Below, piece after piece: positions 59,063 through 63,149 of a stretch of 64,000 nt of DNA. Source of the stretch: an uncultured archaeon. Lineage in GTDB: Archaea > Asgardarchaeota > Lokiarchaeia > Sigyniarchaeales > SOKP01. The stretch covers positions 89,244 to 153,243 of the forward strand of contig CAZALK010000014.1 in assembly GCA_964486045.1 (NCBI GenBank), read 5' to 3'. The notes under the pieces are model-generated. The model saw only the letters and a list, made by a program, of their open reading frames with translations, did not search any database and was not told the DNA's origin. A program made the translations under genes and the position numbers. Within the stretch, counting starts at the first letter, position 1; every line of letters begins with the position of its first letter.

Positions 59063-59686
59063 ATGAAAGAAAAAAAAGATGAAATTGAGAAAATAAAGAA
59101 TTTTAGAAGACAGTATAACAATACCCACGCAACTGATTACGATGATATGGAGCATGACGATAATCTTCTCGAAGAGATTGAGGGTTTTATCAAATTAGTA
59201 AAAGTAAAAGCTGGACAAGTTGTTCTAGATATCGCAACGGGTACAGGAAGATATTTGATTCAGATGGCAAAGTTAGGAGCTTTATGTTATGGTATTGATC
59301 AATCTCCAAAAATGCTCAAGGTTTTGAGTCAAAAGATTAAAAAGGAGAATTTCGAAAGAAATATTAAAAAGATAAGTGTAGACGCAGCTGATAGTTTACC
59401 CTACCCTAGTTACTTTTTTGATTGGATTACTTGTATAGGAATGTTTGAATACTATCCGTTAGAATATGTAAAAATAGTTTTATCTGAGATAGTAAGGGTA
59501 ATCAAACAAAATGGATATATTTTCATAGATATAGCTGACCCTCTCAAAAAATATGCTCAAAAAAGAGACTGGATATTTAGTTATGATTTAAAGAAGTTTG
59601 AAACAATAGTGGGTGCTGTTGGATTAAAAATATTAACAACTAATCGTGCTGGATATATGCTTCAATATCTTCTGTCAAAAATATAG
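59063..59686 (+). CDS. class I SAM-dependent methyltransferase
   Basis: VLDIATGTG, GIDQSPKML, LPY...FD. Confidence 0.88.
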   Translation: MKEKKDEIEKIKNFRRQYNNTHATDYDDMEHDDNLLEEIEGFIKLVKVKAGQVVLDIATGTGRYLIQMAKLGALCYGIDQSPKMLKVLSQKIKKENFERNIKKISVDAADSLPYPSYFFDWITCIGMFEYYPLEYVKIVLSEIVRVIKQNGYIFIDIADPLKKYAQKRDWIFSYDLKKFETIVGAVGLKILTTNRAGYMLQYLLSKI

Positions 59687-59818
59687 CTTCTTTTGATTGC
59701 TCCTTTTATTAGGAGGATTAAAATTAAAAAAAATAAAATGTAGTAATAATACCGATCTTTCAGGCAGATTATTTTTTAAAATGCAAGGAATTAAATAATT
59801 AAGGCGTATATAATGCAT

Positions 59819-59997
59819 AGACAAAGATTTAAAATCAAATATGATGTTCACTATCCGCCCCTGGATTTTTGTCTTTTGGTAGTGTAACTTGTTACACTTA
59901 CAATTTCTCACCCTTATATTGGTTTGTCTCTTATTGAGACTCTGGGTAGTGAGCATCACCCTTAATATTTTCAAAGTTAGGGGTATTAAAGACTCAG
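59819..59997 (+). ncRNA. unassigned structured ncRNA, copy 1
   Basis: 15-bp P1 (59842-56/59944-58), 13-bp pseudoknot stem (59819-31/59862-74), internal hairpins, 3' hairpin; covaries with copy 2. Confidence 0.75.
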
Positions 59998-60106
59998 AAT
60001 TTTTTAGGAGCTTATTTATTTTCAAAAGAGAATTTTTTATTCCAGGTGTTTAGTAATTGTTTTTAAAAAACAAGCAAATAAATAGGCATCATATTTTTAG
60101 TATAAT

Positions 60107-60288
60107 AGACAAGGATTTACAAACAAACATGGTGTTCACTGCTTAACCCTGGATTTTTGTCTTTTGGTAGTGCGGTTAGCTGCACTCTCAATCTTTCTCA
60201 CCCTATTTATTGGTTTTGTCTCTTATTGAGACCATGGGCAGTGATCACCACTTTTTATAACTTCCACAAGGTGTCATGAAAGATTCGG
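60107..60288 (+). ncRNA. unassigned structured ncRNA, copy 2
   Basis: 16-position P1 (60130-45/60235-50), pseudoknot stem (60107-19/60150-62), same hairpins with compensatory changes. Confidence 0.75.
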
Positions 60289-60327
60289 TTAAGAAGAACT
60301 AATAAAAATAGAAAGAGTAATCCAACA

Positions 60328-60534
60328 TTACTGGAGATTTTTCCTTTTCCACCTTTCTAAATAATACTTAAATACGGTATCATCAATCCCTAAAGAATTT
60401 GTTCCCCCATCGTTTGATTTTTTGGTAGTTACTCGTTTTGGTCGAAGGGATTGCTGCCAGTCATAATACGATTTTGGTTTCTCCATCAAGAAAAACACAA
60501 GTATCTTAATAATTAAATCAGAAGACTCCGACAA
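60328..60534 (-). CDS. small hypothetical protein (may start at an internal Met, MEKPKSYYDW)
   Basis: Last gene of a - strand three-gene run. Confidence 0.5.
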   Translation of the reverse strand: MSESSDLIIKILVFFLMEKPKSYYDWQQSLRPKRVTTKKSNDGGTNSLGIDDTVFKYYLERWKRKNLQ

Positions 60535-60564
60535 ATTTTAAGAATAAGCATATTCATAAAAGAA

Positions 60565-60891
60565 TTATAATTTATACTCAAGGTTGGTCAATTTCTCAAG
60601 TGATTTAATTTTGTCCGAGCCTTTTTCGATATTTTGCCCATTGATCAACATTCCTGATTTTGAAAATGTGTATACTCTAAAGATTTCGCCATAATCCAAT
60701 AATATCGCATAATAATCATTATGAGATTCTTTGACCGCTCGTTGAGGTAAGGGACCACCTAGAGATACTTTTTTTTCTTCCTTTACCCTTAAGACTCTGC
60801 AAGTTAAAGGCCGTTTTTCACGATACTCTTTTTTGGCAAACTTAACGACCTTTTTTAATCCATATCTATTGCTTAATTGCTTCCGAGTCAT
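60565..60891 (-). CDS. small basic hypothetical protein
   Basis: 108 aa, K/R-rich N-half, beta-rich C-half; GAGTG SD. Confidence 0.65.
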   Translation of the reverse strand: MTRKQLSNRYGLKKVVKFAKKEYREKRPLTCRVLRVKEEKKVSLGGPLPQRAVKESHNDYYAILLDYGEIFRVYTFSKSGMLINGQNIEKGSDKIKSLEKLTNLEYKL

Positions 60892-61461: not shown

Positions 61462-61810
61462 ATGAGTCATAAACAAATAACTGATCCTCTACAAAAGAAA
61501 GCTATCGACGATTTACAGAAAATGAAACTACATTTTGATGTCGAATTTAAGGTTAAGAATGGAAATATAAAAGAGCTTTTCTTTTGGCAGAATTGGATTG
61601 ATAAACTTCCTGATAAGGCTCAAATTCATGTTTTCCGTCATAATTGTACCCAATATTAAATACATAATAAATTCCATCGTTATCGTTATCAGGGGTTAAG
61701 ATAAACACGGTTTCGTAAAATCCATTACCATCCGAATCGTAATAGAGATAATGACCATCCATCTTTCCTTCCTCCTTAGTAAAGGCATCTTTTTCAGATG
61801 TGTAATACAC
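61462..61810. pseudogene. junction of two gene fragments: LRR-protein-like N-terminus (+) and acidic DxDxDG-type fragment (-)
   Basis: KNGNIKELFFWQNWIDKLPD ends abruptly; opposite strand YYDSDGNGFYETVF...DNDNDGIYY. Confidence 0.4.
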
Positions 61811-62409
61811 TTTTCCATCATTTTCTCGGTTGGTTATTACTTGATCTTATTGGTTTAATCACCTTTATCAAGCCATTCAATGAACCAAAAAGGTGGCTCA
61901 ACCGAATTGCTTTTAAGTCATTTATGAGAAAAAAATATTTATTACTTTCTCTTAGTACTGAATTGATTGGAATAATTCTGCTGATCTCTTCTTTTAGCGT
62001 TCCTTGGTCTTATCAGCTATATGTAGATATCAATAGTGGAAAATTTACTCGACATTTTTATGCCAACCAGGCAATTAACCTAGAGGCCTTGCTAAATCTC
62101 CTTTTATTTTATGTGTATTATCTTGGTTTAGCTCTTATATTTGTTAAGATTTCTGTAAACCTAAAAATTCGCAAGCGTACTGCATTAGAATTACTTGAGC
62201 TAATATTAATAGTCCCAATAATATTGCTCATCTTCAACATTCATTCCGTGAATTGTACCCCATCACCAATTCCAGAAAGATTCTGTCTAAATTCGGGTTA
62301 TTCCTCTGGATTTATCCTACTTTTCATTGGAACCACAGTATTAATCATAAATGGTTTGCAATTGAGTATTTATTCAAGGAGAAAGAGGGAAATATGGATG
62401 AATAAATAA
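61798..62409 (+). CDS. hypothetical membrane protein, paralog of 62502-63149 (5' end possibly clipped)
   Basis: Shared FLGWLLLDLIGLITFIKP, TELIGIILL, PW, SGY.SGF, LIING. Confidence 0.65.
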   Translation: MCNTLFHHFLGWLLLDLIGLITFIKPFNEPKRWLNRIAFKSFMRKKYLLLSLSTELIGIILLISSFSVPWSYQLYVDINSGKFTRHFYANQAINLEALLNLLLFYVYYLGLALIFVKISVNLKIRKRTALELLELILIVPIILLIFNIHSVNCTPSPIPERFCLNSGYSSGFILLFIGTTVLIINGLQLSIYSRRKREIWMNK

Positions 62410-62501: not shown

Positions 62502-63149
62502 TTATTTTCCATTCAAATCAACCAAATCTCTGGGTGTATCCCTCAGTAGCAGATTATTTAAATTTTTTTTTCCCTTCAGTCTAGAATAGAAACTAAATTG
62601 TATTCCATTTATTATTAACAAAGAGATACTAATAATATATAAGAAGAAACCAGAGGTATAACCAGATTTAATATAAATGAGAATGGCTAAATAAAATAAT
62701 AGTTCAAATTTTACATTGAAAATGAGAATTATTCCCGGGATAATAAACAAAATTTGAGTTACTTCAATCAGATAACGAATCTGTAGTTTTTGTTTTATAG
62801 AAATCTTAAGAAAGAGGAGACATAATCCAATTAGATAAGCGTAATACAAATAAATAATGAATATACCGTCTAAGTTAACAGCTTCTATAAAATAAAGGTA
62901 TTGAAAATGATTTACACCGAATAAGTGGTAATACCAAGGAATAGAAAAAGAAATTACTAAAAGTATAATTCCAATTAATTCTGTGACAATAGAAAATAAA
63001 ACATGCTTTTTGGGAATAAAAGACCTAAAATTCATTCCATTCTTCCAATTAGTTGTTCGATCAACCGGTTTAATAAATGTTATTAAACCAATAAGATCAA
63101 GTAATAACCAACCGAGGAAAAGATGTACTAGATCAAGTGTGTCACTCAT
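62502..63149 (-). CDS. hypothetical membrane protein, paralog of 61798-62409
   Basis: Same shared motifs as 61798-62409; convergent orientation. Confidence 0.7.
   Translation of the reverse strand: MSDTLDLVHLFLGWLLLDLIGLITFIKPVDRTTNWKNGMNFRSFIPKKHVLFSIVTELIGIILLVISFSIPWYYHLFGVNHFQYLYFIEAVNLDGIFIIYLYYAYLIGLCLLFLKISIKQKLQIRYLIEVTQILFIIPGIILIFNVKFELLFYLAILIYIKSGYTSGFFLYIISISLLIINGIQFSFYSRLKGKKNLNNLLLRDTPRDLVDLNGK

Follow-up and report, generated by a model that had tools for sequence, protein, structure and literature searches.

To our knowledge, very few structured RNAs have been described from Asgard archaea beyond the universal ones. Among better known systems, the Sm-class small nuclear RNAs (snRNAs) of eukaryotes carry an Sm site of the form AAUUUUUGG (PMC5587771), which together with a 3' stem-loop makes up the 'snRNP code' of the small nuclear ribonucleoprotein (PMC6954390). 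Archaeal Sm-like rings also bind U-rich single strands (PMC3710371, PMC5587771). We analysed a stretch of 64,000 nucleotides (nt), termed the window below, from contig CAZALK010000014.1 (C14) of an uncultured archaeon of the order Sigyniarchaeales (Lokiarchaeia; assembly GCA_964486045.1, the host genome). Its + strand holds two copies of a structured RNA, at 59819-59960 and 60107-60252, with a spacing of 288 bp. The copies very probably represent a family of stand-alone genes for a structured non-coding RNA. With the models used here this small RNA is detectable only in one order, where it occurs in nearly every high-quality genome.

Fold and covariation of the RNA

The family fold is a three-way junction, in which a closing stem, P1, of 14-16 bp is followed inward by two hairpins, P2 and P3, with long joining (J) single strands between the helices. 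In an alignment of 34 members from many genomes, 95.8% of the cells assigned to the three helices are paired, as against 30-46% when the partners are slid by 1-3 columns; for P2 the figure is 98.7%. Double compensatory changes occur at 24 of the 27 pairs (14/15 in P1, 5/7 in P2 and 5/5 in P3), and 19 of the 27 are already double-changed among 15 paralogs of the host genome. The alignments used for these counts were fitted to the covariance model and so favour that model; RNAalifold, run as an independent check, returns the same three helices. When all columns were compared with all others by mutual information in 79 distinct members, the top Watson-Crick pairs all fell inside the three helices, and no covarying Watson-Crick pair was found outside them, including within J2/3. 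The three helices are strongly supported by compensatory changes.

The copies had first been picked out in a reading of the window made without database searches (the sequence-only reading), which described them as two diverged copies with one fold in non-coding DNA. That description stands: they lie within the non-coding region 59690-60330, share the helices, and have in common an identical block of 26 nt (59859-59884 and 60147-60172) for which 0 chance matches are expected. The same reading had named a lack of covariation among homologues as grounds for its own rejection, and the covariation found at the 24 pairs is strong. P1 is as it was described, with 15 bp in copy 1, 15 of 16 positions paired in copy 2, and the swaps from A-U to G-C and from U.G to C-G; at the position of copy 1's U.G, copy 2 has a U-U mismatch. 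The hairpins AGUGUAA-CUUG-UUACACU (AGUGCGG-UUAG-CUGCACU in copy 2) and GUCUC-UUAUU-GAGAC are likewise present and backed by covariation. The family helices contain 79 G.U cells and 13 A.C cells, an excess which identifies the + strand of the window as the RNA strand, as had been proposed. Both copies are G+C islands (0.40 and 0.43) between flanks of 0.23-0.24. Folded as single sequences they give z-scores of -4.65 (copy 1) and -2.12 (copy 2), with the closing stem and two hairpins recovered, and copy 2 matches the covariance model with 160 bits over 60107-60252.

From 5' to 3' the consensus consists of an A-rich leader, P1, J1/2 with the sequence (A)CCCUGGAUUUUUGUCUUUUGGU, P2, J2/3, P3, 2-3 nt, the 3' strand of P1 and a CC(C)UUU tail. 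The hallmark of the family is the invariant GGAUUUUUGUCUUUUGG of J1/2, and the absence of covarying partners is our sole ground for treating this U-rich block as single-stranded. A mini-hairpin predicted by RNAalifold within the block was rejected, since it shows no covariation and cannot form in the sister family, where the block reads UUAUUUUGUCUUUUUGG. The sequence of P2 is itself well kept across the family (AGUGUAA...UUACACU). J2/3 is a pyrimidine-rich strand of about 30 nt, which reads CUGAUUUCGCCCUCCUCCCCCUAUUUUAUUUUU in its common form and UACAAUUUCUCACCCUUAUAUUGGUUU in copy 1. The sister family has an additional hairpin with covariation (CCUCC/GGAGG, CCCCG/CGGGG, CCUCUUC/GAAGAGG), of which the C-rich part of J2/3 forms the 5' arm. 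The P3 hairpin is wholly missing in one genus.

Of the 79 members, 71 have a U-run in the 16 nt after P1, mostly at an offset of 2-3 and usually after CC(C), which fits archaeal oligo-U termination. The RNA should therefore measure about 125-150 nt rather than the roughly 180 nt assumed earlier, and its end is most likely the U-run right after P1; on this basis the two copies would be about 150 nt long and most relatives about 125-145 nt. Several elements of the sequence-only reading had to be given up along with this length. The 3' hairpins that it drew lack conservation: the one of copy 1 is disrupted even in a copy of 96% identity on contig C35, and the family ends earlier. The U6 tract of copy 1 is not conserved either, and the short CAAU/AUUG stem lacks covariation and is missing in close paralogs on contigs C16 and C3. 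No conserved reading frame was found, any one frame being open in at most 16 of 77 members; a 116-amino acid (aa) antisense open reading frame (ORF) at 59675-60025 recurs solely in near-identical copies.

The features of both copies are collected in Table 1. Upstream, the non-coding region is flanked by a SAM-methyltransferase gene (59063-59686, +), which is the only neighbour in the window to match Pfam. Downstream lie small genes on the - strand, beginning at 60328, which are convergent to both RNA copies. The window contains no tRNA or tmRNA.

Table 1. Features of the two RNA copies and the basis on which each was assigned
Feature	Position	Strand	Basis or remark
Copy 1 upstream block	59771-59818	+	A/T-rich, TATA-like TTTTTTAAAA (59772-59781) and AATTAAAT (59789-59796)
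Copy 1 leader AGACAAAGAUUUA	59819-59831	+	13-bp complement of UGGAUUUUUGUCU (59862-59874); proposed pseudoknot or self-masking strand
Copy 1 P1, 5' strand UGAUGUUCACUAUCC	59842-59856	+	Partner 59944-59958, 15 bp
Copy 1 J1/2	59857-59880	+	Holds U-rich block CCCUGGAUUUUUGUCUUUUGG, invariant in the host's family; Sm-site-like AUUUUUG
Copy 1 P2 AGUGUAA-CUUG-UUACACU	59881-59898	+	Covariation
Copy 1 J2/3, pyrimidine-rich UUUCUCACCCU	59899-59925	+	Most variable part among paralog groups (alignments)
Copy 1 P3 GUCUC-UUAUU-GAGAC	59926-59940	+	Covariation
Copy 1 P1, 3' strand GGGUAGUGAGCAUCA	59944-59958	+	Fold and covariation
Copy 1 likely 3' end CCC UU AAUA UUUU	59959-59971	+	Placed from the family U-run
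Copy 2 upstream promoter-like block TTTTTAAAAAACAAGCAAATAAATAGGC...	60059-60106	+	Alignment with copy 1
Copy 2 leader AGACAAGGAUUUA	60107-60119	+	Complement of 60150-60162, -12.6 kcal/mol
Copy 2 core	60130-60250	+	P1 60130-60145/60235-60250; invariant block 60147-60172; P2 60169-60186; P3 60218-60232
Copy 2 U5 run	60252-60256	+	Directly 3' of P1; likely terminator

Paralogs in the host genome

What had been taken for a mere tandem pair belongs to a larger set. Searches by BLAST and with R1, a covariance model of seven close copies, give 19 matches in the host genome, 16 of them full length and 3 partial. One group of paralogs, group A, comprises the window pair, another tandem pair at the far end of C14, at a distance of 146 kb, a pair on C35 and single copies on C16 and C3; a second group, B, has six copies. 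Two further copies, at C1:51217-51360 and on C26, are of the type of the common ortholog found in other genomes. The two copies in the window are derived paralogs, and the ancestral copy lies elsewhere in the genome, on contig C1.

Part of the surroundings is duplicated as well. A block of 870 bp holding both RNA copies and the region of a 68-aa ORF (60328-60534, -), at 59750-60608 of the window, recurs at C14:3280-4131 with 82% identity and in the same orientation, so that the two blocks lie near both ends of the 153-kb contig, the duplicate 85 kb before the start of the window. On C35 (10100-13800) there is a third tandem pair, the second copy of which is split at the invariant block into a 5' part (C35:13166-13251) and a 3' part (C35:10409-10516). 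The approximately 2.7 kb within the split copy encode, on the opposite strand, a 184-aa PadR regulator and a protein of 643 aa with a HAAS domain.

Distribution and synteny in related archaea

For searches of wider spread the model was rebuilt from wider alignments (R2 and R3). Covariance-model matches were obtained in 32 of 36 genomes of the same genus, in 123 of the 131 searched in its family (12 of the 13 genera) and in 7 of 14 genomes of the sister family, closed genomes included; two further families of the order gave none (0/5 genomes). Among high-quality genomes of the order, 38 of 39 have a match. The remaining families of the phylum, represented by about 123 genomes, yielded one weak match (31 bits). 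A search of Asgard genomes, which the sequence-only reading had suggested, thus reveals a family far larger than a pair, yet essentially limited to one order. Genomes usually carry 1-8 copies, closed genomes of the sister family 1-3 and some closed genomes a single one, against 18 matches in the host genome in this comparison; the matches total roughly 400. The exact 19-mer CTGGATTTTTGTCTTTTGG occurs in more than 117 public contigs, nearly all labelled Promethearchaeota or Promethearchaeia.

The common ortholog is syntenic in 24-25 genomes. Upstream of it are genes for a 163-aa protein, a 72-aa CxxC protein and a divergently oriented membrane protein (about 145 aa). The downstream gene, which has the same orientation as the RNA and begins after about 330 nt, encodes a radical-SAM protein that bears a zinc ribbon of the HMPTM type. 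Across genera, the radical-SAM gene and the divergent membrane-protein gene stay separated by about 700 nt, a gap that includes the RNA (C1:49717-52860, and 24 loci in synteny with it in other genomes). The sister family has the RNA instead flanked by a 408-aa gene in divergent and a 189-aa gene in convergent orientation. When the ORFs within 5 kb of 18 host copies were clustered, no protein family was found to recur beside the RNA. The differing synteny and the lack of a recurring neighbour argue for a vertically inherited, self-contained gene, and the convergent orientation of the downstream genes in the window and in the sister family argues that the RNA is not a 5' untranslated region. The overall pattern of neighbours speaks against a leader sequence and also against cargo of a mobile element.

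Four contigs classed as viral contain the 19-mer; three of these are chance matches. The fourth, of 224 kb (IMGVR_UViG_3300029288_000001), carries a divergent member (44 bits, positions 41-163) at its end, and may be a giant Asgard virus, a mobile element or a misclassified piece of host DNA. In a group of public contigs labelled Patescibacteria, Saccharibacteria or Clostridia, one contig (L197) has three RNA matches within 3.4 kb, and two others (L170 and L141) have weak partial matches; these bacterial-labelled contigs are probably mis-binned Lokiarchaeal DNA.

Other observations on the assembly and the window

Contigs C40 (5821 bp) and C45 (2376 bp) of the host genome have a G+C content of 58-59%, against 30-31% for the genome, for which contamination is estimated at 7.8%; the two contigs look foreign and carry no rRNA genes. 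The 16S (C1:626407-627898) and 23S (C1:570625-574067) rRNA genes are unlinked: they share a strand but have about 52 kb between them. At 3443 nt the 23S match is longer than its model of 2987 positions, as would fit the large expansion segments that have been reported in Asgard rRNA (PMC7594248). Near the end of the window, two adjacent paralogous ORFs stand in inverted orientation (61798-62409, +, 203 aa; 62502-63149, -, 215 aa), neither with a Pfam match.

Promoter, leader and signs of expression

In an alignment of all genomic copies, the upstream block of copy 1 is conserved with copy 2 and with the other paralogs of groups A and B. The promoter-like block noted earlier as common to the two copies is therefore real, and takes a looser form in group B. 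A box of the ATTAAAT type lies about 45 nt before P1, and from this spacing only, transcription would start near AGACAAAG (about 59817-59822 in copy 1), which would place the leader inside the RNA. Covariation and a promoter-like element of its own both favour the view of the sequence-only reading that this is a functional RNA; independent transcription, the other half of that view, we infer.

The leader segment AGACAARGAUUUA can pair with UGGAUUUUUGUCU over 13 bp in both copies. The copy 1 duplex has a predicted energy of -13.6 kcal/mol, which about 2.5-5% of shuffled leaders equal. Pairing of this kind is a feature of group A and, in part, of group B; it also occurs in some other genera, where several subfamilies carry an upstream complement of the block in differing registers. 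Across 89 loci, the leader complementarity of most syntenic orthologs is no better than that of shuffled leaders. Because the target strand never varies, covariation cannot test the pairing. The pseudoknot of the sequence-only reading thus persists as a real complementarity in both copies and some subfamilies, and is missing from the syntenic orthologs. It would be at most a recurrent trait of subfamilies, acting as a pseudoknot or masking the U-rich strand, and it stands outside the family core.

None of the RNA-labelled runs listed contains the window itself. With the conserved ortholog as query, two runs labelled as sediment metatranscriptomes were found to hold contigs of 33-159 nt over the conserved core; one 36-Mb run has 12 such core contigs in several sequence variants, a weak hint at an abundant RNA. 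Stretches that no contig covers carry no weight either way.

Searches for a known class

Rfam 15 (4227 models) gave 0 matches at gathering thresholds in the whole window, in agreement with the earlier failure to recognise a family. With E-values up to 10, the two copies and six diverse relatives produced only scattered sub-threshold chance matches, and a full-text literature search found no published description of this RNA. It matches no known class and is new at the level of the RNA family.

Individual classes were also considered. Pairing with rRNA looked suggestive in RNAduplex, where GAUUUCRCCYC of J2/3 meets GGGGUGAAAUC in helix 23 of 16S rRNA and CCCUGG of J1/2 meets CCAGGG, and was rejected because shuffled strands match or exceed such runs once G.U pairs are allowed. 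A Y RNA was rejected on the lack of a match to PF05731 (TROVE/Ro60) in the 99%-complete host genome, the same search having detected the domain in control genomes. C/D and H/ACA RNAs and K-turns were rejected by eye on the alignments: the AUGA sequence belongs to a paired strand of P1, CUGA is found in some subfamilies only and lies 5' of the pyrimidine stretch, and the 3' tail is CC(C)UUU, not ACA. As to a riboswitch, a downstream gene on the same strand is found only for the ancestral copy in one family, across a gap of about 330 nt. Guide RNAs of the omega or bridge type were rejected, no gene of the TnpB, IscB or IS110 type being linked; the neighbours in synteny are the radical-SAM enzyme and proteins that are small or membrane-bound. 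A search of the host genome turned up no extended complement for either of the joining strands.

A proposed ribonucleoprotein core

We propose that the two copies in the window are paralogous genes for a structured small RNA that is lineage-specific and stands alone. An A/T-rich archaeal promoter in front of each gene would drive its transcription on the + strand. The helices would form a scaffold that presents the invariant U-rich strand to a U-binding protein, and the resulting ribonucleoprotein core would act in trans. Since GGAUUUUUGUCUUUUGG never varies, we take it to be read as sequence and not as structure. The variable C/U-rich strand of J2/3 may give each paralog its specificity, and in the subfamily of the window the 5' leader could pair with the U-rich strand, as a pseudoknot or as a mask. 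On balance we consider this whole picture, of a stand-alone RNA acting in trans within a ribonucleoprotein, to be probable.

The prime candidates for the protein partner would be the Sm-like (SmAP/LSm) rings of the cell, and the host genome encodes three LSM-domain proteins above the Pfam cut-off. In the RNA, A-U5-G is followed by UCUUUUGG and then by the P2 hairpin, which starts 9 nt after the G. A-U5-G is invariant in the host's family, with a G before it and a U after it, and in the sister family the sequence is U-A-U4-G-U. We nevertheless hold an Sm-like partner to be a tentative suggestion, since the consensus is matched in part and Sm-like proteins are found in all archaea. It is more doubtful still that AUUUUUG is a genuine Sm site, at which the RNA and an Sm-like ring would form a stable particle, a living analogue or even a relative of the type of RNA-protein complex out of which snRNPs arose. 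If this were true, the expansion of paralogs would mirror the variant genes of snRNAs.

Several observations weigh against the proposal or parts of it. The Sm match is incomplete, a U replacing the purine after the G and the sister family having U-A-U4-G, and the 5' flank of the Sm-like site is a strand of P1, not a hairpin. Sm-like proteins are common to all archaea, so that their presence here says little, and no protein gene co-localises with the RNA. The core contigs from metatranscriptomes are unstranded, could include DNA, and give neither the strand nor the ends of the RNA. One family invariably has the ancestral copy about 330 nt ahead of the radical-SAM gene and in the same orientation, and there the RNA could have a role in cis. 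A ribozyme or a ligand-binding RNA would be just as compatible with the combination of helices and conserved junction strands.

Alternative explanations

An unpaired C-rich stretch, tandem paralogs with diverged 'seed' regions, and a promoter-like block and terminator of its own would also suit a base-pairing small RNA (sRNA). Its C/U-rich strand (CCCUCCUCCCCC in the common form, UUUCUCACCCU here) would bind purine-rich, Shine-Dalgarno-like sites in mRNA, and the U-rich strand would be merely a handle for a chaperone, as in Hfq-dependent bacterial sRNAs and the tandem families of the LhrC/RsaE type. We think this unlikely: the host genome yielded no extended complementary target for any single strand, the sister family locks the C-rich stretch into a covarying hairpin, and the structure is kept far more strongly than is usual for sRNAs of the seed type. 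The synteny with the radical-SAM gene, on the same strand in 24-25 genomes, raises the further question of a cis-acting leader, a riboswitch or attenuator of that tetraether-synthase-like gene, in which P1 and the U-run would serve as terminator and the extra copies would regulate other genes. The junction strands are conserved in the manner of an aptamer, and a stem followed by a U-run does resemble a terminator. However, the distance of about 330 nt to the gene, the placement between divergent and convergent genes in the sister family, the opposite-strand genes downstream of both window copies, and the 16 host copies with no common downstream gene family make such a leader quite improbable.

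A catalytic RNA, such as a new class of self-cleaving ribozyme with an active site built from the junction strands, would account for helices that vary freely around invariant junction nucleotides, for the small size and for the many copies in some genomes. No Rfam ribozyme model matched, though, and single strands of 24 and about 30 nt, mostly U/C-rich, are unusual for a compact active site; with one hairpin that can be lost entirely and a stand-alone gene context, we see little prospect that the RNA is of this kind. The slightest chance is that of a part of a mobile element, whether a miniature inverted-repeat transposable element, the end of an insertion sequence (IS), an integration target or an omega or bridge guide RNA. 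Features that recall mobility are the 18 matches in the host genome, several of them near contig ends, the tandem pairs on C35 and at either end of C14, a pair of 3' fragments that start at the invariant block, and the copy split by 2.7 kb. But no transposase, nuclease or recombinase recurs beside the copies, and the 2.7-kb insert carries the PadR and HAAS-domain genes, which are not mobility genes. Most genomes have 1-3 copies in conserved synteny, the four viral contigs with the 19-mer yield three chance matches and one divergent copy, and compensatory changes of the RNA type with a G.U bias are unexpected in DNA repeats.

Whatever its partner, the RNA described here is a new class that could be added to Rfam, and it can usefully mark contigs of Lokiarchaeal origin. 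Its fold is already settled by covariation, so that the family is ready for experiments, and cultured relatives appear to carry orthologs. The resemblance of the U-rich strand to an Sm assembly site makes binding the question to ask, as it bears on the role of Sm-like rings on RNA before the spliceosome.

Comparison with known RNA systems

Like the omega RNAs of TnpB and IscB and the bridge RNAs of IS110 elements, which are structured, about 150-180 nt long and multicopy in some genomes, this RNA is structured and repeated. It differs from them in having no conserved adjacent nuclease or recombinase, and its variable parts are homologous and diverge slowly, which is not guide-like. With the Y and vault RNAs it shares ends paired in a long stem, pyrimidine-rich loops, 3' oligo-U and several paralogs; it is set apart from both by the lack of a TROVE/Ro60 gene in the host genome and of any match to the Y_RNA or vault models of Rfam.

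The Hfq- or Lsm-associated regulatory sRNAs of bacteria and archaea, among them tandem families with C-rich motifs such as LhrC and RsaE, offer the likeness of a U-rich strand beside a hairpin, an unpaired C-rich stretch, a 3' U-run and tandem paralogs. In contrast to them, the present RNA has a long closing stem, a three-way junction and very strong covariation; no target complementarity was found, and its C-rich stretch is paired in the sister family.

Against the Sm-class snRNAs (U1, U2, U4, U5 and U7), the differences are that the RNA scores on no snRNA covariance model and has no 5' element resembling the regions that pair with splice sites or the branch site. The flanking purines of the Sm site are also lost, the sequence here being GGAUUUUUGUC and that of the sister family UUAUUUUGUC, and the hairpin is 9 nt off. 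What the two would have in common is an invariant, apparently single-stranded A-U5-G followed by a stem-loop, a length that falls in or near the range of about 110-190 nt, and several variant gene copies, each with its own promoter.

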